A stretch of DNA of 64,000 nt. Origin: an uncultured Acidobacteriota bacterium (GTDB lineage: Bacteria; Acidobacteriota; Thermoanaerobaculia; UBA5066; DATFVB01). Positions within the stretch are counted from its first letter, which is position 1; every line of letters starts with the position of its first letter. The notes under the pieces were generated by a model. It worked only from the letters and a program-made list of their open reading frames with translations, was not told where the DNA came from and ran no database searches. A program made the position numbers and the translations under genes. Of the stretch, positions 23,901-61,395 are shown piece after piece. The stretch covers positions 2,337,996-2,401,995 of the forward strand of contig OY970224.1 in NCBI GenBank assembly GCA_963714035.1, written 5' to 3'.

Positions 23901-24308
23901 GTGGGAAAAGTGAAAAAGACGGCGAACGCGCGATTCGCGATCGAGAACTGGGACGAAAAGCCCTACGGAGAAGGCGAGGGTCTGCCGAAGCTGACCCGGG
24001 CGACCGTCGCGAAGACCTTCACCGGCGACATCGAAGGGGAAGGGCACGTCGAATATCTGATGATGTACCGCAGCGAGAGCTCGGCCACGTTCGTCGGTCT
24101 CGAACGGGTCGTCGGGAGCGTCGCGGGCAAAACGGGCAGTTTCGTGTTGCAGCGAACCGGAGTGTTCGAGAACGGTCTCGCGAAGGAGTCGTATTCCGTC
24201 GTCTCCGGCTCCGGGACGGACGAGCTTCGGAATCTGCGCGGCGAGGGGGAGACGTCGGTCGGGCACGGGATGGAGCATGCGATGACGCTGCGCTATGAGC
24301 TCGACTGA
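23901..24308 (+). CDS. DUF3224 domain protein
   Basis: The core G.G.....G....SG.F.L....G and the ~135-aa size fit DUF3224. A paralogue lies at 34122-34520. The start may instead be GTG at 23910. Confidence 0.6.
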   Translation: MGKVKKTANARFAIENWDEKPYGEGEGLPKLTRATVAKTFTGDIEGEGHVEYLMMYRSESSATFVGLERVVGSVAGKTGSFVLQRTGVFENGLAKESYSVVSGSGTDELRNLRGEGETSVGHGMEHAMTLRYELD

Positions 24309-24417
24309 AGGCGAGGCGCCGGGAAAGATCACCCTCACCCGACTCGCTCCGCTCGCCGGCTCGCGCCGCCGCTGAAGCCGTGGCGGACAGGTCTCCCGTC
24401 GAGCGAGAGACGAAGGG

Positions 24418-24900
24418 TTATTTCTGCGTGCCGGAGAGGACTTCGCGCAGGCTCCATTTCGACGACGGCGACCGGATGTTCGAGATTCGCCAGCCCTCCG
24501 GGGTCCGCTTCATTTCATAGATCAACTTTCTCTCGCCGAGATTGCGAAGAGTCACCTCGAACGATCCGGCAGGTTTCACCTCCCGGATCCGCGGATTCGG
24601 CTCCGAATCGTCGAAATCCTGCGCGTCATAGAAAGGATCCCAGTCCAGATTGCAGACTTCCTGCCGCTTCTTCCCGCATTCGCAATCCTTCACGAACAAA
24701 TCGGTGAGCGCCGGGTCGCAGTACCTCGACACGCCGGCCCTGTCGCAGAGATCGATCTCCCGATTCTTGCCCGGTTGGTGGTGAGCGTACAAAGACGCGA
24801 TCACTTCCTGAGGAGTGTTCGCGGCGTGGTCCGCCGCTGACGTCCGCGACGGCACGACGAGAGTCACTACCAGGAAGATCGAAGACGCCGTCCACTTCAT
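24418..24900 (-). CDS. Secreted Cys-rich hypothetical protein
   Basis: Signal peptide MKWTASSIFLVVTLVVPSRTSA. Several Cys residues (CDRAGVSRYCDP, CECGKKRQEVC). Confidence 0.5.
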   Translation of the reverse strand: MKWTASSIFLVVTLVVPSRTSAADHAANTPQEVIASLYAHHQPGKNREIDLCDRAGVSRYCDPALTDLFVKDCECGKKRQEVCNLDWDPFYDAQDFDDSEPNPRIREVKPAGSFEVTLRNLGERKLIYEMKRTPEGWRISNIRSPSSKWSLREVLSGTQK

Positions 24901-24911
24901 GCCGCCCCCGA

Positions 24912-25298
24912 TCATCGGGACGCGTTCAGCTTCACGGCCGCGCGAATCAGGGCCTTCAACGCCTTCTCGTCGATCTTCTCCCCCTCGTGGAAGTCGATCG
25001 CTCGCCGGGTGTTGCCCTCGAGGCTGGAGTTGAAGAGGCCGGTCGGGTCCGCGAGCGCGGCTCCCCTCGCAAAAGTCGTCTTCACGACCTTCTTGTACGT
25101 CTCGCCGGTACAGATCAATCCGTCGTGAGACCAGACGGGAATCCCCCACTTCCACTCTTCGGCGATTTCGGGATCGGCCTGCCGGATCAACTTACGGATG
25201 CGGGCGAGGGTCTTGCCCCGCCAGTCGTCGAGCTCCTCGATCCTCCCGTCGATCATCTGCGAGGGAGACTTCCCTTTCGGCAATCCGCTCTTTTTCAT
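24912..25298 (-). CDS. DUF1801 (YdhG-like) domain protein, second copy
   Basis: IEELDDWRGKTLARIR...WKWGIPVWSHDG...KTTFA pattern. Paralogue of the 2517-2933 gene. Confidence 0.7.
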   Translation of the reverse strand: MKKSGLPKGKSPSQMIDGRIEELDDWRGKTLARIRKLIRQADPEIAEEWKWGIPVWSHDGLICTGETYKKVVKTTFARGAALADPTGLFNSSLEGNTRRAIDFHEGEKIDEKALKALIRAAVKLNASR

Positions 25299-26046: not shown

Positions 26047-26784
26047 TCATCTCTCCCCGTTCGGAACGAGGCTCACCGCCTGGCCCACGTGGATCGTCCC
26101 GGGGCGCACCGCCGTTCCATAAACCCCCGCGTTGTTCCCGTTCAACTGCACCACCGCCTTCATCGGGCGCCCGTCCTGCTTCCCCGTGTCGGGGTCCAGA
26201 TTGATCATCATGCATCGTTCGTCGCGCAGGGTGACGCTCACGGCCGGCATCGGCTCGCGTTCCCCGAACACGAGCGTCCCGCCGATCCACGCGTCCTCGG
26301 CAAACGGCCCGGGGTCGTCCGCATCGAGCACGATGTTGGCCCGGAAACGCCGGCGATCGAGCTCCATCCCGGCCGCCCGCCCGATGCCCGCGATGGTCTG
26401 CCGGGTGATCACCGAGATCGGCGCCTCGTCGAAGATCCCGTGCTTGAGCTTCATCAGCTCCACCTCCACGCCGCACTTCGCCGCGATTTCGCTCCGGAGC
26501 TCCTCGCCGCGCAGCTCGAGCTCGGCTCCGGCCGGCGTGCGAACGTGCGTCGGCAGCGGCTCGGCCGAAGACTCGTCGAGACCGAACGGGCGGTAGAGGA
26601 TGAGCCCCGGAAGGCGGCTCGCGGAGAGCCACGGGAAGCCGTTTTCCTCTCCCGGCCGACGGAATGCGAAGCGTCGATCCCCGTCGAGCCCGTGCCAGCC
26701 GAGCACGGCCGACTCCGCCGCGGCGCCCGCCATCGACTTGACGGGATACCGCACCAGCTCGCGAACTCGCCCGAGGGGAATCAT
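26047..26784 (-). CDS. MOSC domain-containing protein
   Basis: N-terminal beta-barrel followed by a MOSC core with the conserved Cys (RFRANIVLD...DERCMMINLD). Confidence 0.75.
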   Translation of the reverse strand: MIPLGRVRELVRYPVKSMAGAAAESAVLGWHGLDGDRRFAFRRPGEENGFPWLSASRLPGLILYRPFGLDESSAEPLPTHVRTPAGAELELRGEELRSEIAAKCGVEVELMKLKHGIFDEAPISVITRQTIAGIGRAAGMELDRRRFRANIVLDADDPGPFAEDAWIGGTLVFGEREPMPAVSVTLRDERCMMINLDPDTGKQDGRPMKAVVQLNGNNAGVYGTAVRPGTIHVGQAVSLVPNGER

Positions 26785-27230
26785 GGCGCGGAGGGGATCC
26801 CGCGGCTCCGCCGCCGATGCCACGCGAGCGCGACGAAAAACAGGACGACGGCGGCGTCCACGCACGCGACGATTTCCCGCAGCGAGCCGCGGCACTCCGC
26901 TTCGCTCGGATACCGTCGGAGGATCGGAACGCCGAAGAGGGATGCCGTCTGAACGCAGGGGACGCGAGCGAGGAAGAACGCGACCCAATTCGCGATCGCC
27001 AGAAAGCAGATCATGATGGCTTTCAGCATGGCGCCGGAGAGACGCGACCAACCCAAACCCTGGGCAACCAGGTGGAGCCCACAGAGCGTGAACGCGGCCA
27101 GCGCGAATAGCGCCATTCCGAGCGGCCACGACGGATTGAGGCCCTGCGGATGCGAGATCATCAGCCAGCCGGTCCCCAGCCCGAGGATCAGGAAGACGAC
27201 TCCGAGAAGAAGAGCGGCCCTGACGGTCAT
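26781..27230 (-). CDS. Membrane protein (4 TM), hypothetical; start overlaps the MOSC gene (ATGA)
   Basis: Four hydrophobic helices. Translational coupling with the downstream MOSC gene. Confidence 0.5.
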   Translation of the reverse strand: MTVRAALLLGVVFLILGLGTGWLMISHPQGLNPSWPLGMALFALAAFTLCGLHLVAQGLGWSRLSGAMLKAIMICFLAIANWVAFFLARVPCVQTASLFGVPILRRYPSEAECRGSLREIVACVDAAVVLFFVALAWHRRRSRGIPSAP

Positions 27231-27367
27231 TTCATGCCAACGGCCGTCTCACGACGCGCCCGGCGGCAGTGCTCAGGCCGCGCAGGATCGTGGGTGTCGC
27301 TTCGAGCAGATCGAGGCACGGCAGGCCCTCGTTCACGACGACTATCCCCCGCGACGTCTAACGGCCT

Positions 27368-27805
27368 TTACTCGCCTTCCAGGGTCAAATGCACGCTCTT
27401 GAGCTCCTTGATTTCGGAGATCACGATTGCACGCGTCCCGTTGCGCTCAAATATGGTCCCGCTGGCCTGCACGTATTTACCCACGAAGGGCATCAACTTT
27501 TCCAACTCACCGGCGTCAGGCATTTTGTCGGAGATAGGGAGATACAGATCACCCTCCCGGGTCAGAATAACGAGCGGCGAACCACCCTTCACGCAATCCC
27601 GCACGCACTTCGTGCTCAAGGCGGTCGCATTCGAATCGAGGTTTTGAATGGGACACGCAAGGTCCCGAAGCAAGCCCTCGATCGTCGCCTGCGACGCGTG
27701 TGCCCGGGAACCCGGCATCGACGTCTTCTGTTGAAGTTGAGACGCAGCCAGGATCGACGCGATACCGCAGGCAGCCAGCAGGCACAGACGCAGAAGTGGC
27801 TTCAC
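27368..27805 (-). CDS. Secreted hypothetical protein (first gene of the lower-GC island)
   Basis: Signal peptide MKPLLRLCLLAACGIASILAA. Local GC drops to ~52%. Confidence 0.5.
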   Translation of the reverse strand: MKPLLRLCLLAACGIASILAASQLQQKTSMPGSRAHASQATIEGLLRDLACPIQNLDSNATALSTKCVRDCVKGGSPLVILTREGDLYLPISDKMPDAGELEKLMPFVGKYVQASGTIFERNGTRAIVISEIKELKSVHLTLEGE

Positions 27806-27870
27806 GGGTTCTCCTTTTCGCTAATGCCGCGACAATCGTTCACTTCGAGCAGCCTCTGGCGAAGGCTGGA

Positions 27871-28407
27871 TCAGGCAGGAACATACGCCAGCCTGATCAC
27901 GTTCTCGCCGATCCGATCACCAGAGATAAGCCGGAGCGGCGGCGGTGGCTCTGCGAAATAGGGCTTGCCGCGACTCAGCACGACGGGATGGAGGTAGATT
28001 CTGTATTCATCGATCAGGCCCAGCTCGGTGAGGCCTTGCGCGAGGGTCGGTCCGGCAACTTCGATCTCCCCGTCACGCTCGGCCTTCAGCTCGCGGATCG
28101 CGCCCTCGAGATCATTCTCGACGAGGCTGGCATTCGGTCCGACCGACTTCAGGGAACGCGAGACGACCCATTTCGGCTGTTTCCGCCATATCGCCGCGAA
28201 AGCGTTTTCCTCTTCGCCCCAGTCAGGCTGATCGTCGTCCCAGTAGCGCATGACCTCATATATTCGGCGGCCGTACACACTGCCCGCCTGCCCCCGAGCC
28301 TCCTCGATGAAGTGGCGGAAGAGCGCGGGGCTTGGCGCAAACGATGCATGATCGACGTAGCCGTCCAGGGACTGGTTCATTGCGAACACGAGCCTCGCCA
28401 TACCCAC
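27871..28407 (-). CDS. Dihydrofolate reductase-like (RibD C-terminal domain) family protein
   Basis: MARLVFAMNQSLDGY...GR.Y...............................P..VVS......NA......L.... matches the YwjB/RibD_C family. Confidence 0.7.
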   Translation of the reverse strand: MGMARLVFAMNQSLDGYVDHASFAPSPALFRHFIEEARGQAGSVYGRRIYEVMRYWDDDQPDWGEEENAFAAIWRKQPKWVVSRSLKSVGPNASLVENDLEGAIRELKAERDGEIEVAGPTLAQGLTELGLIDEYRIYLHPVVLSRGKPYFAEPPPPLRLISGDRIGENVIRLAYVPA

Positions 28408-28494
28408 TTCCTTTCCGTGCGCGGCAGATCCGCGCGGATGAGCCGACCGAGCGCCTCGACGTCTTCGGCGTTGAGGGCGGTCACCGTGCGGCCT

Positions 28495-28548
28495 GACGAC
28501 ACGAGCTCAGCGGCAAGCCCGCAGGGCGCGGTCCGATGCAAGCGCATG
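28495..28548. repeat. Degenerate copy of the island REP-like element
   Basis: gagctcagcggcaagcccgcagggcgcggtccgatgcaagcgcatg resembles the consensus GGCTTCAGCGGCGGCAAGCCGCAGGCGCGCCGTCCGCTGCAAGCCGATG. Confidence 0.5.
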
Positions 28549-28669
28549 CCAGGCGGCGCCGATGCGGCCGTGCGTGCATGTGGCCTTCCTGCTCGTGGCG
28601 CCAGCCACGGCTTGACGCGCCGACCCGGGCATCGCGAAAGGAAGTAGCTCACGCCGCCAAGCCGTTTCT

Positions 28670-29047
28670 TCAGGAAGCACTCCGCCGAGCTCGCAACGCC
28701 TGGACCGCCAGGATGATCGAGAACGCCCCGTTGACTCCGAGAACATAGAGCGTCCAGATGAACAGCAGGGCGCCGCCCTTCTCGAGAAACTCCGGGCGCA
28801 ATCCATGCCGCATGTGCAGTGGCAGCATCAAGACGGCTATCACGCCGCCAAGTAGCATGATCACCTTGCCCACTGCCCGTTCTCGCAGCAGCACGGCGCC
28901 GCAGACAATCACGAGCAGACTCCCGACGCCGACAAGATGATTGAGCCCAGCGCGGTCGAACCCGAAGACAATGTCTTGCGAGATATGCAGGGCAAGCAGA
29001 AGCACGGAGAGTATCGAGGTCAGACTCAAGAGATCGTTCTGCTTCAT
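28670..29047 (-). CDS. Membrane protein (4 TM), hypothetical
   Basis: 125 aa with four hydrophobic helices. GC ~55%. Confidence 0.5.
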   Translation of the reverse strand: MKQNDLLSLTSILSVLLLALHISQDIVFGFDRAGLNHLVGVGSLLVIVCGAVLLRERAVGKVIMLLGGVIAVLMLPLHMRHGLRPEFLEKGGALLFIWTLYVLGVNGAFSIILAVQALRARRSAS

Positions 29048-29103
29048 GGAGGGCGCTCCTTTTCAGTCTGTGTGACCTGCGTTAACTGCCTAACCACCCG
29101 GGT

Positions 29104-29460
29104 TCAGCGGCGGCACGGCGCGCCTGAGGCGTCCCGAACCGTGATCGCTAGGAAATCGGCGTCGGTTGAAACCATCTCAGGCTGAATGTTCTTGGGAAGT
29201 GCACAGAACTCTTGACGCCGGACTTCGCCGGATAAACTCTTCAGCTGCTCGGCGGATAAGTGGATGAGCCGTGACGAGACCCCAGGATGAACACACGTAT
29301 CTTCGCTCCGTCGGTGAGCGAAACCCGACGCATAGATTGCCGTGTACCATCCTGCACCGCACCATACCGTTCGCTCGACCTCGATGATCGGCTTCTCCTC
29401 AGCGCCAAAGGCCACTGATGCAATCAGCACGATCATTCCGCCAACGGTGACTAGCCGCAT
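29104..29460 (-). CDS. Secreted hypothetical protein
   Basis: Signal peptide MRLVTVGGMIVLIASVAFGA. Confidence 0.45.
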   Translation of the reverse strand: MRLVTVGGMIVLIASVAFGAEEKPIIEVERTVWCGAGWYTAIYASGFAHRRSEDTCVHPGVSSRLIHLSAEQLKSLSGEVRRQEFCALPKNIQPEMVSTDADFLAITVRDASGAPCRR

Positions 29461-29513
29461 AACGACCCGGCTTCAGCGGCAAGGCCGAAGTCCGCTGCAA
29501 GCCGATGTTCGGG
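29461..29513. repeat. Island REP-like hairpin element, copy 1
   Basis: aacgacccggcttcagcggcaaggccgaagtccgctgcaagccgatgttcgg, with paired CAGCGG/CCGCTG and CGAAC/GTTCG arms. Confidence 0.75.
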
Positions 29514-29520
29514 GTGCGCA

Positions 29521-30140
29521 TCATTTGGGCGCCTTTCGCGCACCCGTGTCAACAACGAACTCATGCTGCTTCCGGCTCCACCGATATCGCCTGTCCCCAC
29601 TACTTTGGGTCAGTTGGGCGTTGTTGTACACGCCGACTCGAAAACCGTTCTCGGTGGGCCAGATGCCGATAGAGCTGGATATACCACCGAACCTATCGCC
29701 AGCGATCGGGAGAGCGCTTATGCGACCGCTGGGAGCGATGGTGAGCACGTGGTAGCCAGAGAAACCCATGCAGCTCGGCTGCTCGATTGTGAAATCCGGG
29801 TCGCCGTCGTCGTTGTAATCGTCAAATTCCAGCTGAGTCTCACCGTTTCTCAAGAATGTGAGGTCGGGTTCGCCGGTCACCTCGTTCAAATCGGTAGTGA
29901 CTTGTGTTCCAGTGTCGAGCGTGGCGATTGCTTTAAACTGGCCAACCCACACGTCAGCCGCAGGCCCAGCGCAGCTCTTGGCTTCCGGCCTCGCGTTGCC
30001 GACTTCGATTCGTACGGCCGCCACTTTCATACTCAGATCCGCCCGGACGATGGAGTTTACGACTACGGCTGGCTTTTCGGCCGCCACGGCGGAAACCGTC
30101 ATCGTTAGCCCCGCAAGTATTGCCAAAGTGCTCGAGAACC
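29521..30140 (-). CDS. Secreted hypothetical protein; the start is approximate because the annotated N-terminus runs into REP copy 2
   Basis: Signal-like segment TLAILAGLTMTVSAVAA. The ORF-track start at 30228 would translate the REP element (IGFQRTARLRLAAAEA). Confidence 0.45.
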
Positions 30141-30149
30141 ATCGCGCCC

Positions 30150-30212
30150 CGAACGACCAGGCTTCAGCGGCGGCAAGCCGCAGGCGCGCCGTCCGCTGAA
30201 AGCCGATGTTCG
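30150..30212. repeat. Island REP-like hairpin element, copy 2
   Basis: cgaacgaccaggcttcagcggcggcaagccgcaggcgcgccgtccgctgaaagccgatgttcg. Confidence 0.8.
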
Positions 30213-30224
30213 CCCGCCCGCCGA

Positions 30225-30770
30225 TCATCGTGAACCGACCAGTATCTGCGCCGGCGCAGCCTCAAGCCTCGTGTCGTAGCAGCCATAAACGTCGCAATCA
30301 GAGCCGTACACGATTGATTGCGACACGCTGACTCGGGCGGGCCCTTCGCCGACATCTGGAATTCGTACAGAATCGGTCCAGGTAAACGTTGCCTTGGGAT
30401 CGACGTGGAACGTTGACTTGCAGTACGGGTGGCCTACACGCGTCGAGAGCCCTCTGCTCCGCGCGCTGCCATCGAATCTGATGTCCCGACTCGAGCCAAT
30501 GCAGCCCTCAATGGTCTGATCGCCGCTGTTCGTTACGCCGAGCCGGACGATTACTTCCTGGTTGGCGGTGACATGGTCGGCGGAGAGGCTGATCGATAGG
30601 GCAAGATTCTCGCGGTAGCGGGCGAGCTGAGCGGTGATTCGTGTCCATGCCTCGGGCGAAGCCCGTTGGGGTAGCGTCTGTCCAGACCGTTGCGGAGAAT
30701 GGTTCTGGTTTTGCGCTGCGCAAGAGAACCCGAGGGCAGCTACGATGCCGATGACCACCACACCACTCGC
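30225..30770 (-). CDS. Secreted hypothetical protein; start approximate for the same reason
   Basis: Hydrophobic segment VVVIGIVAALGFSCAA. The upstream part of the ORF translates REP copy 3. Confidence 0.4.
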   Translation of the reverse strand, partial: ASGVVVIGIVAALGFSCAAQNQNHSPQRSGQTLPQRASPEAWTRITAQLARYRENLALSISLSADHVTANQEVIVRLGVTNSGDQTIEGCIGSSRDIRFDGSARSRGLSTRVGHPYCKSTFHVDPKATFTWTDSVRIPDVGEGPARVSVSQSIVYGSDCDVYGCYDTRLEAAPAQILVGSR

Positions 30771-30808
30771 CTTACACCTGCTCAACGGTAAGCCTCGCTC
30801 GGGGCGGG

Positions 30809-30873
30809 CGAACGACCCGAGTTCAGCGGTGGCGAGCCGCAGGCGAGCCGTCCGCTGCAAGCCGATGTTCGGG
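30809..30873. repeat. Island REP-like hairpin element, copy 3
   Basis: cgaacgacccgagttcagcggtggcgagccgcaggcgagccgtccgctgcaagccgatgttcggg. Confidence 0.8.
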
Positions 30874-30886
30874 AACGTCAGATTAC

Positions 30887-31624
30887 TCATTCAGCGGGCC
30901 ATGTGAACCGAAATTGTACGTGAGTACCAGCCGGCACCCCATCGAGAACGTCGCTTCCGTCCGGTCTCGTCACGGCAAATCCCAGACCAGGAGGACGCCG
31001 AAGGGTCTCAGCAGCCAAATTATCCGGCGGCGTGATCGCGAAGAGGGTCTCGACCGCAAAAGCCCGCGACACGATACCGTTGAGCTCACCCGCTTTGGTC
31101 CAATGGAAGTCGAGTTGAAATCTTGCATCCTCAGGTCTTGTCGTGAAGGTGCCGGGCGTGACGTACATTGCCCACTCTTTCGGCCAAGGACTCTTTCCGA
31201 AGAGGCCCTGAACCCAAGCTGGGGGAATGACGGAGACTCCAGGTATCGATTTGGCGCTAATCGCGCCACAGATCAATTTCATAAACCATTTTTCGAGACC
31301 ACGCCCGTCGAGGTTAGCGGCGATGTCTGACGCTCGGCCACGGACCCCGGTGCTCAAATGGTTCTGCCCTGCGACCAGCATCAGATTTCGGAAGTAGTCT
31401 CGCGCGTTACCGTCTAGACCGTCCAAGTCGTCGTGATGCTTTGCGCAGACGACATATCCGTGACCGTACGAGCCCGGCGCCATCGCTTTTGAGGAGCCCG
31501 CCTGCCACGCGAAGCCAGCGACCGTTACGGAACCCAGCATCACCTGCAGACTCCGTGAAATGAAGTGCTCGTCCTCAATGGCGCCAGAACAGTCGCCGAG
31601 AACCTCTGCGTAGCATTTCGCCAT
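30887..31624 (-). CDS. Cytoplasmic hypothetical protein with a possible His-Me finger / HNH-like motif
   Basis: 245 aa with no signal peptide. A C..C...H then CAKHHDDLDGLDGN......N.......NH arrangement is reminiscent of HNH, but the match is weak. Confidence 0.35.
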   Translation of the reverse strand: MAKCYAEVLGDCSGAIEDEHFISRSLQVMLGSVTVAGFAWQAGSSKAMAPGSYGHGYVVCAKHHDDLDGLDGNARDYFRNLMLVAGQNHLSTGVRGRASDIAANLDGRGLEKWFMKLICGAISAKSIPGVSVIPPAWVQGLFGKSPWPKEWAMYVTPGTFTTRPEDARFQLDFHWTKAGELNGIVSRAFAVETLFAITPPDNLAAETLRRPPGLGFAVTRPDGSDVLDGVPAGTHVQFRFTWPAE

Positions 31625-31664
31625 TTCTCAGGCCTTGTCGATTACCCGATACTGCTTACGTTCC

Positions 31665-31728
31665 CGAACGACCTGGCTTCAGCGGCGGCAAGCCGCAGGC
31701 GCGCCGTCCGCTGCAAGCCAATGTTCGG
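31665..31728. repeat. Island REP-like hairpin element, copy 4
   Basis: ccgaacgacctggcttcagcggcggcaagccgcaggcgcgccgtccgctgcaagccaatgttcgg. Confidence 0.8.
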
Positions 31729-31736
31729 CGTCTTCG

Positions 31737-32276
31737 TCATGACCGCGATGACCTGAGTACCATTGCCAGCGTGACCAGGAGACTCGCTAATATGCCAAGA
31801 ACGAGAATTCCAAGTGGGCGTTGATACCACGGAAGTATTGGGTGATCAGCCTCTAAGGCACGCCGTACCTCTGGACGAAGAGTTTCTGAAATTGCCTTCA
31901 TCTTATTCCTGAGGTTCGGTGCTAGGGCAGGCAGCCCGATTCCCGCCGCGACCGCGGACAGCCGCGATTCGTATCCGGCCGCGATCGTGTCGATCTCGGA
32001 GAGTGCGGCGCGTGACAGCCGGGCCGCCGCACGTTCCCTCAGCCAGCCAACCCTGGGTTTGGGAAGAAGGGCGATTCGCGTGAGACACAGTTGTTTCGCC
32101 TCCTCCAGCGCGTCGCAATAGATTTGGGAGTAGCCAGCCAGCAGGGCGCTTGAACGTGCCCGCCCGGCGCTAGCCTGCGAATTCGCCTCGCGTTCTAGGC
32201 GCTCCGTGACCCGCGCGTTGTGGTCCCGCCACGCTGCCTGACACTCTGCCAGGAGCCGTGACACATCGTTACTCAT
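31737..32276 (-). CDS. Hypothetical protein with a C-terminal TM anchor
   Basis: 179 aa. The helical N-terminal region is cytoplasmic-looking; a hydrophobic helix sits at the C-terminus (LGILVLGILASLLVTLAMVL). Confidence 0.4.
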   Translation of the reverse strand: MSNDVSRLLAECQAAWRDHNARVTERLEREANSQASAGRARSSALLAGYSQIYCDALEEAKQLCLTRIALLPKPRVGWLRERAAARLSRAALSEIDTIAAGYESRLSAVAAGIGLPALAPNLRNKMKAISETLRPEVRRALEADHPILPWYQRPLGILVLGILASLLVTLAMVLRSSRS

Positions 32277-32297
32277 GCACGAGCCAACGCGTCTTGG

Positions 32298-32540
32298 TCA
32301 TTGGCGTAATCCCCGGATCACCCGAAACATGCCTACCAGCAGGAAAAACACCGCGGCGTAGACCGCAAAAGCGGCCGCTGAACATGCCCCGAGGAAGACG
32401 AGTGAACCGTGCATCAAAGCCCAGCCCGTGAAGAACCCAGATAATGGACGCTCCGTGAAGAATGGGACCGCGACACTCGGTAGCGTCGCTGCTGCGACGA
32501 CTGCGGTCAGGATTCCAGCCTTGCTCTTATCGGAACGCAT
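32298..32540 (-). CDS. Small membrane protein (2-3 TM), hypothetical
   Basis: 80 aa, strongly hydrophobic. Confidence 0.4.
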   Translation of the reverse strand: MRSDKSKAGILTAVVAAATLPSVAVPFFTERPLSGFFTGWALMHGSLVFLGACSAAAFAVYAAVFFLLVGMFRVIRGLRQ

Positions 32541-32874
32541 CTTCAGACGCCGAACATGTAATTAGACGTCCTCAGTGTTTTCGACAAACGCGGCGAGAAA
32601 CGGTCAAAAAGGCGCATCGGCACCTCGCAGGTCAAATTGTAGCCCCTTCATCAGGCCCATCGTCATCGACGACTCTCCCTCGCCAGCCGGTCGATTTTCA
32701 GCCGCCTAACACCGGCGAACACCGGATCTGGTAATGCCAAAAAGGCGGGGTTTCTGGCTTCCACTCGAGCTCTCCATCCATCCTCTTCATCGCGTGGTCG
32801 TGCGGATGGGGACATGGCCAGAGATCCGAGAGGGCGAGCATGGTGGAACGGGGTGCGATAATCGCGGCCACCCT

Positions 32875-32951
32875 TCGGGGCGTAGCGCAGCCCGGTAGCG
32901 CTCCTGCTTTGGGAGCAGGAGGTCGTCGGTTCAAATCCGACCGCCCCGACC
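32875..32951 (+). tRNA. tRNA-Pro (anticodon TGG)
   Basis: Acceptor stem CGGGGCG/CGCCCCG, D-stem GCGC/GCGC, anticodon arm CCTGC-TTTGGGA-GCAGG, T-arm GTCGG-TTCAAAT-CCGAC, discriminator A, and CCA encoded. Folded by hand. Confidence 0.85.
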
Positions 32952-32958
32952 ATGATTT

Positions 32959-33918: not shown

Positions 33919-34125
33919 CTAGGCCCGCCGCCGCCCGCGCGCGACACCGACGAGGAAGGCGAGGAGCGCCGCGGCCGGCCCGCAGAAGAACGCGCCGGTC
34001 ATCGCCGCCTCGACCGATCGGTCGTGAACGTTCGAGGAGAGATGCATGACGAGGAAATATCCGACGAGGGCTCCGACGCCGTATCCCGCGATCGCCCAGA
34101 GGAGGCCAATCGCGAAGCGCTTCAC
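33919..34125 (-). CDS. Small membrane protein, hypothetical
   Basis: 68 aa with two hydrophobic helices. Overlaps the DUF3224 gene stop. Confidence 0.35.
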
Positions 34126-34520
34126 GCGCTCTTTTCGGCCGGGAGCGCGTACTCGAAATCGTAGAAATGCGCGCCGCCCTCGCGGATGTCGATCGCCAGC
34201 TTTCCCGAGAGGCCGGCGAGCTCTTCCGTTCCCGAGTCCGGAACGACGGTGATCGAGAGAGACGGTTCCCCGCGATTCATCGTCCCGGTGTGCTGAAGGA
34301 CGAAGCTCCCGCGCCGGCCTCCGAGCGTTCCGCTCACGCGCTCGATCGCGACGTAGCCGGCCGAGCCCGCGACGTTCGTCCCCGCCGAAAGCATCTCTCC
34401 GCGCGCCTGCGCGTCGAGGTCGCCGCGGTACCGCTTCTCGAGCGCCATTCGCGCGAGCGGCGGCTCGAGGCCGGGCTGCGGCGTCATCTTCACTTCGAAC
34501 GGTCCTCGTGCTTGCGTCAT
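34122..34520 (-). CDS. DUF3224 domain protein, second copy
   Basis: Similar to the 23901-24308 product, including the [11 protein letters not shown] block. Confidence 0.6.
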
Positions 34521-34815: not shown

Positions 34816-36078
34816 ATGACCAAGCCGCGCGCTTCCCTCGTTCGGCGGTTCTGGGCGGCGCTCGGCCCGGGACTCATCACGGGCGCGGCCGACGACGATC
34901 CGTCGGGGATCGCGACGTACTCGATCGCCGGGGCGCAGCTCGGGACGAGCCTCCTCTGGACCGCGCTCCTGACCTGGCCGCTGATGGCGTTCGTCCAGAT
35001 GAGCTGCGCGAGGATCGGGATGGTGACCGGCCGCGGCCTCGCCGGGGCGCTCCGGAAGAAGTTCCCGAAGCCGCTCCTCGTCGCGGCGGCCATCGCCCTG
35101 TTCGCGGCGAACGCGCTCAACATCGGCGCGGATCTCTCGGGAATGGCGGATGCCGCCGAGATGCTCACCGGGGGCAACTCGCACGTCTTCGTGATCGTCT
35201 TCGGCGTCGGGATCACCGTCGCGGCGGTGCGGCTGCGGTATTTCCAAATCGCGGCCGTGCTCAAGTGGCTGGCGCTCGCGCTCGGGGCGTACGTCATCGC
35301 GGCGTTCTTCGCGCATCCCCGCTGGGGAACCGTCGTGCACGACACGCTGATCCCTTCCCTTCCCCACGGGAAGACGGCCTGGGCGATGCTCGTCGCGATT
35401 CTCGGCACGACGATCAGCCCGTACCTGTTCTTCTGGCAGGCGTCGCAGGAAGTCGAGGAGGAGAAAGCGATGGGGCGGCGGATGCTGGTGAGCCGCAAGG
35501 GCGCGACCTCGCGCGAGATCACCGACCGGAGGATGGACGTCGGCGCCGGGACCTTCGCCTCCAACCTGGTGATGTTTTTCATCATCCTGACGACCGCGAT
35601 GACGCTCCACAGCCACGGCATCACGAACATCGAGACGTCGAAGCAGGCGGCGCAGGCGCTGGCTCCCCTCGCCGGAAAATTCGCCGCGGCCCTCTTCACG
35701 GTCGGTCTGATCGGCGTGGGGCTTCTCGCGATCCCGACGCTCGCGGGCTCCTCGGCCTATGCCTTCGCCGAGACCTTCGGCTGGAAGCAGGGGCTCGACC
35801 GGAAGCTCCAGAACGCCGGCCGCTTCTACATGGTTCTCGGAACGGCCGTCGTCGTCGGCATCGCCATGGACTTCGCCGGCATCAATCCCGTTCGCGCTCT
35901 TTTCTGGTCGGCGGTCGTCAACGGCCTCCTCGCCCCGTTTCTGCTCGTCGGCGTTTTCGTCGTCGCGGGCGACCGGAAGCTCATGGAAGGCCAGCCGAGC
36001 CCGACGGCGAGCCGGGTGGTCGTGGGAATCACCTGCCTGCTGATGTTCGGCGCCGCCATCGGCATGTTCGTGTTCTAA
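34816..36078 (+). CDS. mntH: NRAMP-family divalent metal (Mn2+/Fe2+) transporter
   Basis: GPG(L/F)...DDP.GIAT.S..GA consensus at the N-terminus. 11 TM segments and conserved NRAMP TM1/TM6 motifs. Confidence 0.85.
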   Translation: MTKPRASLVRRFWAALGPGLITGAADDDPSGIATYSIAGAQLGTSLLWTALLTWPLMAFVQMSCARIGMVTGRGLAGALRKKFPKPLLVAAAIALFAANALNIGADLSGMADAAEMLTGGNSHVFVIVFGVGITVAAVRLRYFQIAAVLKWLALALGAYVIAAFFAHPRWGTVVHDTLIPSLPHGKTAWAMLVAILGTTISPYLFFWQASQEVEEEKAMGRRMLVSRKGATSREITDRRMDVGAGTFASNLVMFFIILTTAMTLHSHGITNIETSKQAAQALAPLAGKFAAALFTVGLIGVGLLAIPTLAGSSAYAFAETFGWKQGLDRKLQNAGRFYMVLGTAVVVGIAMDFAGINPVRALFWSAVVNGLLAPFLLVGVFVVAGDRKLMEGQPSPTASRVVVGITCLLMFGAAIGMFVF

Positions 36079-36112
36079 CGGGCACGCCGGCCCGTCGCCG
36101 AATACACGCGAG

Positions 36113-36230
36113 CAGATCCTTCGTCGCTGTGCTCCTCAGGATGACAGTGACGGAGGGGCGTGATGCTGAACGCTGTCCCCCGTCATCCTGAGCGTTCCCC
36201 CCGTCATCCTGAGCGAAGCGAAGGATCTGC
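36113..36230. repeat. GTCATCCTGAGCGAAGCGAAGGATCTG-family inverted-repeat cluster, left flank of the GIY-YIG gene
   Basis: cagatccttcgtcgctgtgctcctcaggatgac ... ccgtcatcctgagcgttcccccc gtcatcctgagcgaagcgaaggatctg. Confidence 0.8.
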
Positions 36231-36277
36231 CCTCGGCGGGGTTTTCGATCCGACTCGTGCCGAAATAGTCTGTACCG

Positions 36278-36553
36278 GTGAACAGCTACTTCGTCTACAT
36301 CGTGACGAACGCGGGACGCGTCCTCTACATCGGCGTCACAAACGATCTCGCTCGTCGGATCGCCGAACATCGGTCGGGCCTGATCCCGGGCTTCAGTCGG
36401 AAGTATCACCTCTTCAAGCTCGTTCACTTCGAAGAGACGCCGGACGTGAAGGCGGCGATTGCGCGGGAAAAGCAGATCAAGGGGTGGACGAGAGCTCGCA
36501 AGATCGTCCTGATCGAGTCGACGAATCCTGAATGGAAGGACCTCGCGTCCTGA
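36278..36553 (+). CDS. GIY-YIG nuclease family protein (small, standalone)
   Basis: YFVYIVTN..GRVLYIGVTNDLARRIAEHR...........KLV..E matches GIY-YIG cd10448-like proteins. 91 aa. Confidence 0.85.
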   Translation: MNSYFVYIVTNAGRVLYIGVTNDLARRIAEHRSGLIPGFSRKYHLFKLVHFEETPDVKAAIAREKQIKGWTRARKIVLIESTNPEWKDLAS

Positions 36554-36568
36554 ACCGAGGACCGATGG

Positions 36569-36634
36569 CAGATCCTTCGCTCCGCTCAGGATGACAGAGA
36601 AAGGGTGCCACGTCGCTGTGCTCCTCAGGATGAC
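36569..36634. repeat. Same repeat family, right flank of the GIY-YIG gene
   Basis: cagatccttcgctccgctcaggatgac ... cgtcgctgtgctcctcaggatgac. Confidence 0.8.
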
Positions 36635-36706
36635 ATGGTCCGCAGGTCCGCGATCTGGGAGGCCGCAGCGTTCCAGCCGCAAAGCGGCGCGCGCGAGGCC
36701 GACGGA

Positions 36707-37486
36707 TCAGCCGAGGCGGACCGTGAGCATCGAAATCGACCCTCCATCCACGCCCTCGACCGGAAACGTCACCTTCTCGCCAGGCCGCCGGGCGCCGAGC
36801 ACGTAGAGGAGCGGCAGGTAGTGCTCGGGAGTCGGGATCGAGAGCATCGCATCGGCGCCGAGGGATTCGTAGTCGACGAGCGGCGCGTCGTTCCCTTCCT
36901 CGAGAAGCCGGCGCGCGCGTTCCTCGAACCGCACCGCCCAGTCGAACGGAGCGACGGGATGGCGTCCCCACGCATAGGCGTGCAGGTTGTGGACGAGATT
37001 GCCGCTCCCGACGACGAGCACCCCCTCGTCGCGCAGCGGCCCGAGGAGCTTGCCGATCTCGTAATGGAATCGCGGCGGCCGCGTCTCGTCGATCGAGAGC
37101 TGGACGACCGGCACGTCCGCGCCGGGATAGACGCGGCAGAGAACCGACCAGGCGCCGTGATCCAGCCCCCAGCGCCGGTCCCGCGCGACGGGCAGGGGCG
37201 CGAGAAGGTCCGCGACGCGCTCGGCGAGCGCGGGGCTTCCCGGCGCCGGATACTCGACCGCGAAGAGCTCCCTCGGGAAGCCGCCAAAATCATGTATTGT
37301 TCGCGGGGTCTCCATCGCCGTGACCGCCGTTCCCGGAACGAACCAGTGCGCGGAAATCGCGAGGACCGCGGACGGGCGCGGGATTTCGGCTCCGATCGCA
37401 GCCCAGGCTCGGGTCCACGGGTTGTCCTCGATCGCGTTCATCGGGTTCCCATGGCCGAAGAAAAGAGTGGGCATCGTGGTCGGCAT
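36707..37486 (-). CDS. Extradiol ring-cleavage dioxygenase class III subunit B (4,5-DOPA dioxygenase / YgiD-like)
   Basis: LFFGHGNPMNA ... ISAHW ... DHGAWSVL ... VVGSGNLVHNL motifs. The start is M14 or M18 of the ORF-track product. Confidence 0.8.
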   Translation of the reverse strand: MPTTMPTLFFGHGNPMNAIEDNPWTRAWAAIGAEIPRPSAVLAISAHWFVPGTAVTAMETPRTIHDFGGFPRELFAVEYPAPGSPALAERVADLLAPLPVARDRRWGLDHGAWSVLCRVYPGADVPVVQLSIDETRPPRFHYEIGKLLGPLRDEGVLVVGSGNLVHNLHAYAWGRHPVAPFDWAVRFEERARRLLEEGNDAPLVDYESLGADAMLSIPTPEHYLPLLYVLGARRPGEKVTFPVEGVDGGSISMLTVRLG

Positions 37487-44905: not shown

Positions 44906-45876
44906 GGAAGCTCATCGCCCTCCTGGCGTTCGGCGCGCTCGTCCCGGGGGCAGGGGCCGCCGATCTCGTCGAACGGGTCGTCGCGCGGGTCGACGACGCG
45001 ATCATCACGCAAAGCGAGCTCGACATCCGCGTGGAACGGGCACGCAAGGACCCGCAGGCGCCGGCGGACGTCAACAAGATCCGCATCACCCTTCTCGAGC
45101 AGATGATCCGGACCAAGCTCGTCGAGGCGAAGGCGGCCCACCTCGAGATCACCGCGGATCCGAGCGAGATCGACGAGGCGATGGAGCGGGTGAAGACGCA
45201 GTACGGGATCACCTCGGACCAGGACTTCGACCGCGCGCTCGCCACCAACGGAATGGACCGCGACGCGCTCCGGGAGCAGCTCCGCGACTCGCTGCTGACC
45301 AACAAGGTGCTCGCCCGCGAAGTGCCGATCAACCTCAACGACGACGCTCTCCGGACGGAATACGAGAAGGTGAAGGAGGAGAAGTACGGCGTCCCCGAGA
45401 AGGCGCACGTGTCCGAGATCCTCGTCCGCTTCGACCCGAACGACGCCGCCGCGAAAGAGGCGGCGAAGGCGAAGGTCGACGCCGCCCGGTCGCAGATCGC
45501 GGCGGGAACGCCGTTCGCCGACGTCGCGCGCCAGATCACCGAGGGCCCGGCGCGCGATCGGGGCGGCGATCTCGGCGTCGTCGCGCACGGCGATCTGACG
45601 CCGGCCCTCGACGAGGCGATCTTCGGACATACCGACGCGCTCGCCGGGCCCGTGGAGCTCAAGGACGGCTGGTCGCTCCTGTCGATCACGGAGCGGGAGA
45701 AGGCGGGTTATCGACCCTTCGACGACGTCAAGGAAGAGATCCGGAAGAAGATGTCGGAAGACATCTACGACAAGAAGTTCGCGGACTACCTCGCCGAGCT
45801 GCGGAAGAACGCGATCGTCAAGATCTTCGACAAGGACCTCGCGGCCGAGGACGTGGAGACCCAGAAGAAGAGCTGA
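44902..45876 (+). CDS. Secreted SurA-N-domain plus PpiC parvulin peptidyl-prolyl isomerase
   Basis: Signal peptide MRKLIALLAFGALVPGAGA, then the SurA_N chaperone region and a PpiC domain (H.SEILV...A..G..F..VA...........GGDLG). RBS GGAAAGG. ATGA overlap with the upstream gene. Confidence 0.8.
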   Translation: MRKLIALLAFGALVPGAGAADLVERVVARVDDAIITQSELDIRVERARKDPQAPADVNKIRITLLEQMIRTKLVEAKAAHLEITADPSEIDEAMERVKTQYGITSDQDFDRALATNGMDRDALREQLRDSLLTNKVLAREVPINLNDDALRTEYEKVKEEKYGVPEKAHVSEILVRFDPNDAAAKEAAKAKVDAARSQIAAGTPFADVARQITEGPARDRGGDLGVVAHGDLTPALDEAIFGHTDALAGPVELKDGWSLLSITEREKAGYRPFDDVKEEIRKKMSEDIYDKKFADYLAELRKNAIVKIFDKDLAAEDVETQKKS

Positions 45877-45879
45877 TGG

Positions 45880-46100
45880 AGAGGACGAAGTTCCAAATTC
45901 CAAGCGCGAAATTCCAATGAAGCGCGAATTTCGAATTCTCCAAACGAACCGGGCGCTCCTGGAGGGGCGGTATTGTCTGGAATCTGGAGATCGGTACTCG
46001 GAGCGCTTTACCGAGCCGGGACCGTTTGGGATTCCGTACCGGGAATTTCCTGGAATTTGATGCTTGGAACTTATTGGAATTTGATGCTTGGAGCTTGGAG
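45880..46100. repeat. AT-rich element related to the 13325/61217 family, including a 24-bp tandem duplication (GGAATTTGATGCTTGGARCTT x2, 46052-46099)
   Basis: Contains gcgcgaaattccaa/gcgcgaatttcgaattc, and the tandem ggaatttgatgcttggaacttatt ggaatttgatgcttggagcttgga. Confidence 0.65.
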
Positions 46101-46114
46101 TTTCCCCCGCTGAC

Positions 46115-46435
46115 ATGCTTCATCCCGTCCCGACCTCCATCCAGCAGATCGGCCGCGAGCTCGTCGCCGTCTGGGGCGACGGCCGCGAAGACTACTTTCC
46201 GCTCGAGACGCTCCGGCGCGAGTGCCCCTGCGCGATGTGCCGGGGGGAAGGCGATCTTCTCGGAAACGTCTACCGCGCCCCGCAGCGGCCGTACGGGCTC
46301 GGCGCGTTCCTCATGCACGGCTGGAAGAAGATCGGCGGCTACGCGATCCAGATCTTCTGGCAGGACGGCCACAACGACGGCATCTATTCGTACGAGATGC
46401 TGAGGAAGCTCGGGGAAAAGACCGAAACCGCCTAG
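46115..46435 (+). CDS. DUF971 domain protein (gamma-butyrobetaine hydroxylase-like N-terminal Zn-ribbon domain)
   Basis: The pattern ...L.V.W.DG......L..LR..CPCA.C...... is typical of DUF971. The start is set at ATG 46115, downstream of the ORF-track start. Confidence 0.7.
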   Translation: MLHPVPTSIQQIGRELVAVWGDGREDYFPLETLRRECPCAMCRGEGDLLGNVYRAPQRPYGLGAFLMHGWKKIGGYAIQIFWQDGHNDGIYSYEMLRKLGEKTETA

Positions 46436-46499
46436 CTCGACGGCCCGCGTTGCGCCGTATACTCCGCGCCAACGATTTCGAGGAGGGAGCTTGGCAGAA

Positions 46500-47786
46500 A
46501 TGACGTTCTCGCCCGCGGACTCCGCCCGCGCCCGCCATCCGAAGGGGCTCCCGGTGCTCTTCCTGACCGAGATGTGGGAGCGCTTCTCGTTCTACACGAT
46601 GAGCTCGCTCCTCGCGCTCTACATGGACGAGAAACTGCGCTTCTCGCACGACGCGCTCCGGCACGTGCAGGGCTCGTACAAACTTTTCGTGTATTTTCTG
46701 CCCTTCTTCGGGGGACTGCTGGCGGACCGGAAGCTCGGGCTGCACCGCGCCGTGATCTTCGGCGGCATCCTGATGATGCTCGGCCACCTGACGCTCGCGA
46801 TTGAGTCCCTCCCCTTCTTCTTCACCGCTCTCCTCCTCCTGGTTCTCGGAAGCGGCCTCCTGAAGCCGAACGTCTCGACCATCCTGGGCGAGCTCTACCG
46901 CGACCGGCCCCAGCTCCGGGACTCCGGCTACAACCTCTTCTACATGGGGATCAACGCCGGCGCCTTCCTGGGGCCCCTCTCGGCCGGCTACCTGCAGCAC
47001 CACGCTTCCTGGAGCATCGCCTTCGCGTCCGCCGGGGTCGGAATGCTCGTGTCGCTCATCGTCTTCGTGGTGGGGCTTCCCCTGACGGGATACCGGAAGG
47101 GGGGAACGGCCGAACGCGTCCGGCCGCCGGCCGAAACCGGAGCGACGCTCGCCCCGGGCGAAACGCAGCGCCGCGTCGTCGCGCTCTCGGTCGTGTTCCT
47201 CATCGCGATCATCTTCTGGATGGCGTTCTACCAGTACGATTTTTCGATGACCTTCTGGTTCCGCGACAACATCCGCACGACGGTTCCGGCGGAATGGTCG
47301 CAGTCGATCGAGCCGCTCTGCGTGATCGCCTTTTCGCCGCTCGTCGTCTGGCTCTGGGGAACGCTGCGCGCGCGGCGAGCCGAGCCGCGCAGCCCGGCCA
47401 AGATGATGTTCGGCATGTTCCTCATGACGGCGGCATTCCTGCTCGCGTTCGTCGCCGGGCGGATGGGAGGCGACACCGGGCGGGTCTCGATCGTGTGGAT
47501 CGTCGGCATCTACGTCCTCATCGCCCTGGGAGAGATCTTCGTGTCCGCCATGGGACTTTCCCTCGTGTCCCGCGTGGCTCCGCCGAAGATGCAGGGCATG
47601 ATGATGGGCGCGTGGTTCGTCGCGACGGGTATCGGCGGCTACCTCTCCAATGGCATCGGGTTCCTCTGGTACAAGCTCCCGCATTCGACGTATTTCGCGA
47701 TCATGGCGGCGTTCCTCGCATTCGGAGGTCTCCTTCTCGTCGTCCTCGCCCGGCCGCTGAACCGCGTGATCGACCAGACGACCTGA
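46500..47786 (+). CDS. POT/PTR2 family proton-dependent oligopeptide transporter (DtpT-like)
   Basis: The ExxERFxYY-like motif MWERFSFYTM, the PTR2 signature region, and 12-14 TM segments. RBS AGGAGGGAG. ATG at 46500. Confidence 0.85.
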   Translation: MTFSPADSARARHPKGLPVLFLTEMWERFSFYTMSSLLALYMDEKLRFSHDALRHVQGSYKLFVYFLPFFGGLLADRKLGLHRAVIFGGILMMLGHLTLAIESLPFFFTALLLLVLGSGLLKPNVSTILGELYRDRPQLRDSGYNLFYMGINAGAFLGPLSAGYLQHHASWSIAFASAGVGMLVSLIVFVVGLPLTGYRKGGTAERVRPPAETGATLAPGETQRRVVALSVVFLIAIIFWMAFYQYDFSMTFWFRDNIRTTVPAEWSQSIEPLCVIAFSPLVVWLWGTLRARRAEPRSPAKMMFGMFLMTAAFLLAFVAGRMGGDTGRVSIVWIVGIYVLIALGEIFVSAMGLSLVSRVAPPKMQGMMMGAWFVATGIGGYLSNGIGFLWYKLPHSTYFAIMAAFLAFGGLLLVVLARPLNRVIDQTT

Positions 47787-61201: not shown

Positions 61202-61216
61202 CCCGCGCCGTCATGG

Positions 61217-61372
61217 CAAATTTCGAAACACGAAGCACGAATTCCGGAACAGATCGGAAGGACCGAAATCCGAATGACGAAAACGAACCTGAGAAACCGA
61301 GCTCCCGTTTCAAGAATTCGAATTTGGGATTTCGAATTTGTTTCGAGTTTCGATATTCGGATTTCGGATTTC
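61217..61372. repeat. AT-rich palindromic MITE-like element, copy 3, immediately upstream of rng
   Basis: cacgaagcacgaattccggaacagatcggaaggaccgaaatccgaatgacgaaaacgaa ... gaattcgaatttgggatttcgaatttgtttcgagtttcgatattcggatttcggatttc. Confidence 0.7.
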
Positions 61373-61395
61373 TCGCCATCGAGGATTGTGCTCGA

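Follow-up and report, generated by a model that had tools for sequence, protein, structure and literature searches.

Genes and features of the locus

The DNA analyzed here (the window) comprises 64,000 nucleotides of the chromosome of an uncultured Acidobacteriota bacterium (contig OY970224.1, assembly GCA_963714035.1). Near its middle, a segment of lowered GC content that ends beside a tRNA-Pro gene carries nine small genes (g1–g9) and a set of hairpin-forming repeats, and very probably represents an integron gene-cassette array. As the initial annotation had stated, all nine genes lie on the minus strand; the list of open reading frames (ORFs) confirmed this arrangement, and g3, g4, g8 and g9 agree with the genes publicly annotated on two short, identical Logan contigs (L001 and L202; run ERR10755946). 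The neighboring tRNA-Pro(UGG), also part of that annotation, was recovered by both ARAGORN and Rfam. The coordinates of all features are given in Table 1.

Table 1. Features of the cassette array and its immediate surroundings (window coordinates; R1 and R2 are the covariance models described in the text; TM, transmembrane; GC3, GC content at third codon positions).
Feature	Position	Strand	Description	Evidence
tRNA-Pro(UGG)	32876..32952	+		ARAGORN; Rfam tRNA 68.4 bits
Leader	32556..32875	-	Low-GC stretch between tRNA and cassette 1; 320 nt, 57.8% GC	
Junction X	32549..32555	-	R'-type box GTTCGGC (GTTCGGCGTCT); crossover after G32555	11/12 to attC_A R'' flank
Cassette 1	31669..32554	-	886 nt; g1 + g2; ends in attC_A	ORFs, junction X to A
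g1	32298-32540	-	80 aa, 2-3 TM segments	
g2	31737-32276	-	179 aa, C-terminal TM anchor	
attC_A	31663-31729	-		R1 98.4 bits (complement 23.9)
Cassette 2	30813..31668	-	856 nt; g3; ends in attC_B	A to B 12/12
g3	30887-31624	-	245 aa, cytoplasmic, conserved Cys/His motif	
attC_B	30807-30873	-		R1 87.9 bits
Cassette 3	30154..30812	-	659 nt; g4; ends in attC_C	B to C 12/12
g4	30225-30785	-	186 aa from TTG start; signal or lipoprotein-like N-terminus	
attC_C	30148-30214	-		R1 92.8 bits (complement 20.4)
Cassette 4	29463..30153	-	691 nt; g5; ends in attC_D	C to D 11/12
g5	29521-30126 (TTG) or 30102 (ATG)	-	~200 aa; signal-like N-terminus with TTG start	
attC_D	29457-29513	-		R1 68.4 bits (complement 10.8)
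Cassette 5	29094..29462	-	369 nt; g6; ends in attC_E	Sequence read directly; attC_E L'-R' half 18/20
g6	29104-29460	-	118 aa, signal-like N-terminus	
attC_E	29088-29149	-	Very decayed	R1 12.7 bits, E = 0.45; R2 no match; L'-R' half 18/20 positions
Cassette 6	28497..29093	-	597 nt; g7; ends in attC_F	R1/R2 match to attC_F
g7	28670-29047	-	125 aa, 4 TM segments	
attC_F	28491-28554	-	Decayed	R1 28.5 bits, E = 1e-5; R2 32 bits, E = 1e-6
g8	27871-28407	-	RibD_C / DHFR-like; GC3 0.74	E = 2e-11
g9	27368-27805	-	145-aa secreted protein; GC3 0.71	
Host flank gene	26781..27230	-	149-aa membrane protein; GC3 0.81; stop overlaps MOSC start	4-nt gene-call overlap on L202; MOSC Pfam match

The intergenic repeats have the architecture of attC sites

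A repeat search of the window recovered a 57–67-nt repeat after most ORFs, with the minus-strand consensus GCCGAAC-AT-CGGCTT-G-CAGCGG-A-[loop]-CCGCTG-AAGCCG-GGTC-GTTCGGG. Its layout comprises an outer inverted repeat (AAC...GTT), an inner inverted repeat, unequal spacers, bulges in one arm and a loop of variable sequence. Total lengths of ~57–141 nt and a variable central loop are expected of integron attC sites; three of the copies (A, B and C) measure 67 nt each, and the fourth (D) is 57 nt long, lacking 10 nt of the loop. Sites A–C share 86–95% identity, and the AAC and GTT triplets are invariant across A–D. Folded as DNA, the hairpin reaches −25.1 kcal/mol (z = −4.3 against shuffled sequence), and the predicted folds display a bulged G and a bulged A on the R''-L'' arm and spacers of 2 nt versus 3–4 nt. 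Since this layout equals the R''-spacer-L''-loop-L'-spacer-R' architecture of attC sites (PMC8352920, PMC4889954), we identify the repeats by their sequence as putative integron attC recombination sites. The earlier description of them as hairpins resembling repetitive extragenic palindromes (REPs) thus gives way to a different one, based on the attC layout, a single orientation and a shifted complementarity between junctions.

We built one covariance model from the four good copies (R1) and another from 130 members of the family identified in metagenomes (R2), and ran R1 over the whole window with the filters off. R1 returned five significant sites and a weak sixth (E), every one of them a minus-strand site within the array; R2 yielded the same five, and neither model found further sites elsewhere in the window. 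Five model-significant attC sites and one relic are therefore contained in 3.3 kb of a single strand. The complements score only 11–24 bits, which means that the sites are asymmetric and all face one way. The two weaker copies have lost part of the canonical boxes: in site E, AAC has changed to CAC, with the L' box and the R' box GTTAGGC retained, and in site F the R'' and R' boxes read GCCTGGC and GTCAGGC (AAC to GGC, GTT to GTC).

The initial annotation had placed a hairpin in every intergenic gap. This holds for the gaps occupied by the four strong and two decayed copies and fails for the g1/g2, g8/g9 and g9/next-gene gaps, where neither covariance model gave a match. Rfam, which includes no attC family, returned nothing but the tRNA at gathering and at permissive thresholds.

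Junction complementarity delimits individual cassettes

Integron crossover separates the G of the R' box from the TT, and the bases beyond the G belong to the following cassette. When the cassette is circular, these bases pair with the R'' flank of the cassette's own attC. We scored the 12 nt that begin at each R'-box G against the reverse-complemented 12 nt up to and including the AAC of every site. Complementarity to the next site was nearly perfect throughout the intact part of the array (X to A, 11/12; A to B, 12/12; B to C, 12/12; C to D, 11/12), and every other pairing among the intact X and A–D reached at most 9/12, mostly through the common GTTCG. Such shifted complementarity is the signature of circularly permuted cassettes, and it argues against REPs, miniature inverted-repeat transposable elements (MITEs) and terminators, none of which generates it.

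Owing to the junction test, the cassette boundaries are known to the base (Table 1). The six units fit the definition of a gene cassette, each having one ORF (two in the first) and a close attC in the same orientation. ORFs stop ~10 nt ahead of their own attC, with the exception of g6, which runs into attC_E. The R' box of attC_D (GTT ATG C) contains the ATG of g6, which leaves cassette 5 practically without a 5' leader; the 5' leaders of cassettes 1, 2 and 5 measure 2–44 nt. A promoter scan found no sigma-70-like matches in the cassettes, which in this phylum is weak evidence that they lack promoters of their own. Junction X is located 14 nt ahead of the start codon of g1. Its left half does not belong to an attC of this family, and X may be an attI/attC chimera.

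The same attC family is widespread in metagenomes and adjoins integron integrases

When metagenome contigs were scanned for exact matches to the L-box pattern (GGCTTKCAGCGGAC N8-30 CCGCTGAA), at least 120 contained it. The strict pattern amounted to 238 sites with a median spacing of 650 bp (quartiles 533–1002), and 44 of the 120 contigs carried two or more; family members are ~53–114 nt long. Four contigs (L150, L089, L099 and L160) contain 10 to 18 co-oriented model-significant copies each, and another (L190) contains 10 strict-pattern copies. In unrelated loci of Acidobacteriota and Verrucomicrobiota, 1.2 Mb in total, the only three sites belong to a single integron, in contig L028. The hairpin had originally been called island-specific, which is correct within the window, where there are no other copies, and incorrect beyond it, given how common the family is in metagenomes.

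Alignment of 107 distinct sites revealed that 91% of the cells are paired, compared with 24–42% in controls slid by 1–3 columns. Compensatory changes occur in 12 of 19 pairs, a count reached by none of 500 shuffles. Pairs of the AAC/GTT triplets are nearly invariant (A-U 105, A-U 102 and C-G 104 of 107), and the outermost R-box pairs are broken in 25–30 of the 107 sites, in agreement with the expectation for chimeric junctions.

Several of these contigs also encode integron integrases. The product of L117 (1684–2757) reaches 429 bits against the integron-integrase model TIGR02249, for which the cut-off is 265; full-length genes in L139 and L117 are 51–54% identical to IntI1, and L096 and L101 carry partial ones. 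In the Acidobacteria metagenome-assembled genome (MAG) palsa_351, positions 553–3367 of L028 hold a frameshifted intI followed by three same-strand attC sites of the family (R1). The adjacency of family members to TIGR02249 integrases in L117, L139, L096, L101 and L028 provides indirect support that these attC sites would be recombined by IntI as a folded bottom strand.

The relative orientation of intI and cassettes varies among the contigs: intI is co-oriented upstream of the cassettes in L160 (1–4895), L096 (773–2306) and L028, and divergent in L117 (1684–8959). The intI–attC block of L028 is situated 6.6 kb from an NRAMP homolog, loosely resembling the geometry of the window (array, gap, NRAMP), with no flank genes in common.

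Search for an integrase and an attI site

The initial annotation reported no integrase, and this was borne out for the whole window. With IntI1, XerC and IntI_L117 (taken from the metagenome contig) as queries, tblastn gave nothing better than E = 0.3, and the six-frame translation contained no tyrosine-recombinase catalytic-box motifs. Consequently, no intI is present within 27 kb on one side of the array and 31 kb on the other. A search of the leader and flanks for an intI relic (IntI1, XerC, IntI_L117 and the L028 region) was likewise negative, with a best E of 0.93. It is this attC cluster without a tyrosine recombinase in the window that places the element among the CALINs (clusters of attC sites in which an integron-integrase is lacking).

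The low-GC leader between the tRNA gene and cassette 1 contains a tandemly duplicated CCGGTGTT motif with the R'-like boxes GTTCGCC (32714–32720) and GTTAGGC (32704–32710), and 29 nt of it (32699–32727) match the R''-spacer arm of an attC from another metagenome contig (L179) at 86%. No ORF and no significant fold were detected in the leader, which may be left over from an attC half-site or represent an attI/promoter region. Because attI sequences are not conserved between integron classes, an attI is not recognizable here without its integrase.

A probable cassette array without a nearby integrase

These results position the segment, with a probability of about 0.9, as an integron gene-cassette array without a nearby integrase (CALIN) in an uncultured Acidobacteriota chromosome. 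The unit of acquisition is accordingly the single gene cassette, not a whole island inserted at the tRNA gene. As established integron biology implies, each cassette would formerly have been a circle, and IntI would have acted on its attC as a folded bottom strand, recombining it with an attI or another attC, between the G and the TT of R'. The cassettes would have been inserted one by one at the end now beside tRNA-Pro, and the integrase would be either lost or encoded elsewhere in the 3.84-Mb genome; in the latter case, the intact proximal cassettes could still excise and move. This mechanism fits because the head of each cassette and the R'' flank of that cassette's own attC, one cassette-length downstream, are complementary, because all sites and ORFs run in one direction, and because the proximal sites are intact and the distal E and F decayed. 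Ordered by distance from the tRNA end, the site scores are 98, 88, 93, 68, 13 and 28 R1 bits for A to F, and we infer that insertion occurred at the proximal end, with the older cassettes distal.

Several points weigh against this reading. Two of the sites (E and F) are degenerate, and after g8 and g9 an attC is lacking altogether. With neither an integrase nor a recognizable attI, the window itself gives no sign of recombination activity. The bulged bases would be extra-helical in the recombining bottom strand, for which the predicted folds are the sole basis. The array statistics are partly circular, as the covariance models derive from these same copies, and so are those of the 107-site alignment, which was fitted to the model on contigs picked by motif; the junction test and the association with IntI are free of the circularity that affects the motif-selected array statistics. 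Finally, we found no close relatives of the host in the collections, and no relative with a common neighborhood: the best flank-protein identity is 75–79% without synteny (80 loci at no more than 75% with NRAMP as the anchor, and best relatives at 77–79% with MOSC), and the best relatives of the flank proteins come from MAGs labeled Acidobacteriota or Thermoanaerobaculia.

A variant compatible with the CALIN assignment is that the array is part of a working integron, whose intI resides elsewhere in the chromosome, after a rearrangement or as part of a second integron, and acts in trans. The four intact proximal attC sites and the junctions of 11–12/12 suggest recent activity, and roughly half of CALINs are found in replicons that encode IntI, rearrangements being able to split integrons (Cury et al. 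2016, PMC4889954). The lack of intI over the distances given above and the decay of the distal sites count against it, and we regard this variant as possible, with somewhat less than an even chance.

Far less plausible is the scenario proposed in the initial annotation, in which a tRNA-targeting integrase of the phage or integrative and conjugative element (ICE) type, since lost, inserted an island at tRNA-Pro, the hairpins being unrelated REP-like repeats. The low-GC segment does abut the tRNA gene and is foreign in composition, and tRNA genes are common insertion sites of islands. However, the segment is positioned 5' of the tRNA, the usual place for islands of this kind being beyond the 3' end, and no integrase or relic of one is present in the window. 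No direct repeat of any tRNA segment exists around 27.3 kb; exact matches in the window reach 13 nt at most (at 50.5 and 62 kb), and the others are chance matches of 8–11 nt. Cassette-by-cassette insertion also fully explains the internal structure, and the enzyme that is missing would be IntI, whose substrates are attC and attI, not a tRNA. The tRNA-Pro gene is merely a neighbor, transcribed away from the array and not demonstrably part of the element.

Least credible of all is that the hairpins are REPs, bacterial interspersed mosaic elements (BIMEs), MITEs or terminator/mRNA-stability hairpins in a native operon: GC-rich imperfect palindromes in the gaps of a co-directional gene row would suit this, but the remaining 58 kb of the window contain no copies and neither, the L028 integron aside, do 1.2 Mb of other loci. 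The hairpins also keep strictly to one orientation, co-occur with integron integrases, have no T-run after their stems, no terminator-like call in a terminator scan and no Rfam match, and carry flanks complementary to the next copy rather than to themselves, which transposition or REP spread does not yield.

Comparison with known systems

CALINs and chimeric attC sites were described by Cury et al. 2016 (PMC4889954), and the attC architecture and an Acidobacteria-specific attC type by Ghaly et al. 2021 (PMC8352920), so that both the site type and the class of element are already known. Like other CALINs, the array carries two or more attC sites on one strand with gaps below 4 kb and no intI nearby (4–10 kb), it holds cassettes with no known function and no relation to resistance cassettes, its size is typical (there are fewer than six sites in 83% of CALINs), and it shares the absence of an adjacent intI pseudogene with 95% of CALINs (PMC4889954). 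It differs in its host, an uncultured Acidobacteriota bacterium and not a sequenced isolate, in abutting a tRNA gene and in the proximal-to-distal decay of its sites, none of which is essential.

With sedentary chromosomal integrons, such as those with the Vibrio cholerae repeats (VCRs) or the Acidobacteria attC type (PMC8352920), the array shares highly similar attC sites, a chromosomal location, orphan secreted and membrane cargo, and a single attC family common to many arrays of soil and sediment; in contrast to them, it has no intI, no recognizable attI or cassette promoter (Pc), and six delimitable cassettes instead of tens to hundreds. A complete integron would have attI and Pc at the proximal end, and further an intI with the IntI-specific extra domain, not found beside the array. 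Mobile class 1 integrons follow the same cassette logic, R''-L''-loop-L'-R' layout and G|TT crossover, yet the IntI1, resistance genes, Tn402/insertion sequence (IS) context and heterogeneous attC sites that characterize them are missing here. The likeness to tRNA-linked islands is confined to foreign composition and the tRNA neighbor, while the side of the tRNA is wrong, att repeats and integrase are lacking, and the internal repeats are of the integron type. REPs and BIMEs are also short GC-rich imperfect palindromes between genes; the present repeats differ from them in being undispersed (none outside 28.5–31.7 kb of the 64-kb window, from a 3.8-Mb genome), uniformly oriented, associated with chimeric junctions and linked to IntI elsewhere as a family.

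The main value of the analysis is thus one of correction, as a supposed tRNA-linked island with REP hairpins is, on this reading, a textbook integron cassette array, and its boundaries, its unit of mobility and the enzyme it lacks can now be specified to the base. The Acidobacteriota, a poorly sampled soil phylum, gain a well-resolved integrase-less array from it, with an attC family that can be traced in at least 120 metagenome contigs. From the proximal to the distal end, intact sites give way to eroded ones with partly ameliorated codon usage, an illustration of how cassettes turn into fixed genes of the chromosome. Nothing here alters existing knowledge of integrons; the cargo is of the kind mined for new integron-borne functions, e.g., defense systems, and the most promising loose end is the protein family of g3.

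Base composition of the segment

The sliding GC profile revealed a sustained dip from ~27.2 to 32.9 kb, with 60.3% GC at 27300–32875 versus 68.2% in the rest of the window. The dip noted initially is therefore real, and the range given for it (52–58%) is too low, the 500-nt windows inside the segment ranging from 57% to 66%. The segment is the GC minimum among all 5.6-kb windows (the others, non-overlapping, have a minimum of 66.1%, a mean of 68.3% and a standard deviation of 1.2%). Its tetranucleotide L1 distance to the host is 0.452, far beyond the range of 32 host chunks of the same size (0.127 ± 0.018, maximum 0.164), so the composition is non-uniform in both profiles. GC3 of the nine ORFs is 0.63–0.75, compared with 0.83–0.92 in flanking genes, and rises slightly toward the distal end, from 0.63–0.68 in cassettes 1–5 to 0.75 in cassette 6. 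This foreign base composition supports acquisition from elsewhere; the view of the segment as horizontally acquired accessory DNA with deviant composition and small genes of mostly unknown function is upheld, as is the initial account of a characteristic intergenic hairpin and a missing integrase.

Cassette cargo

Simple hydropathy agrees with the protein features predicted earlier: signal-like N-termini in g4, g5 (from the TTG start), g6 and g9, TM segments in g1, g2 and g7, and neither in g3 and g8. Searches of all ten island proteins against Pfam, PADLOC and NCBIfam produced a sole domain match, RibD_C in g8. The six cassettes are of unknown function, and one protein has a confident predicted fold that remained unmatched. 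Such cargo, i.e., small secreted and membrane proteins and orphans of foreign composition, is typical of integrons.

The protein g3 has eight close homologs among 5.8 billion clusters. One of them (P0123, 62% identity, contig L206) is bracketed by attC sites of the same family amid different array neighbors, which indicates that the g3-type cassette is individually mobile. Another (P0126; JGI 3300071358, a 12.8-kb contig known from its genes alone) stands in a co-directional gene row with a PIN protein and its 70-aa partner, an 802-aa NNH7/AAA protein, WD40, CAP12-PCTIR_TIR and DUF1801, which looks like a defense-rich cassette array. Profile searches extended the family to 1971 distant representative clusters, many of ~300 aa with a weak N-terminal SEC-C motif, and in one distant member there is a fusion to a domain that resembles Shedu SduA_C weakly, with a score under the cut-off. 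The conserved motif of g3 (C4..C12..IEDEH20..C60xxHHD) is one we take to be HNH- or His-Me finger-like. Integron cassettes reportedly carry many defense systems (bioRxiv 10.1101/2024.07.02.601686), and a defense or nuclease role for g3 is at most a reasonable guess. A bolder proposal, which we consider improbable, is that g3 founds a new cassette-borne family of nucleases or anti-phage effectors with an unrecognized fold, the array at the same time being active in trans.

Distal genes and flanks

Genes g8 and g9 share the orientation and lowered GC3 of the cassette genes. Neither folding nor the two covariance models detected a relic attC after g8 or g9, and a 120-nt imperfect inverted repeat at 27240–27368 folds no better than shuffled sequence. 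As no attC is recognizable, their membership in the array is uncertain: they are either old cassettes with eroded sites or not members at all. The family of g9 is a widespread and very uniform acidobacterial one (at least 1260 clusters at 68–88% identity, nearly all of 145 aa, no Pfam family), with names from Terriglobales and Ca. Sulfotelmatobacter. One homolog (L208) has a non-array setting; another (L207) belongs to a co-directional run of small genes in which a ParE-like gene is followed by one attC of the array's family; flank gene L3 of the window also has a weak match on that contig, giving a weak g9–L3 co-location. The database identity of g9 exceeds that of the host flank genes despite its foreign-looking GC3.

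At the left edge of the anomaly, the gene for the 149-aa membrane protein is treated as host because it overlaps the start of the MOSC gene and has a host-like GC3 (Table 1). Nothing unusual is encoded in the flanks (MOSC, an MGMT-like DNA-binding protein, VOC/glyoxalase, DUF3224, NRAMP, DUF1801 and LigB). The window has four other, shorter GC dips (0.60–0.64), at 24000–25000, 36000–36750, 45000–47000 and 61000–62000, the first of which spans the DUF1801 gene; this attC family was found in none of the four. The two opposite-facing DUF3224 genes, at 23901–24308 (+) and 34122–34520 (−), bracket a wider region. Considered as an inverted duplication, they proved to be only 36% identical, which makes them old paralogs.

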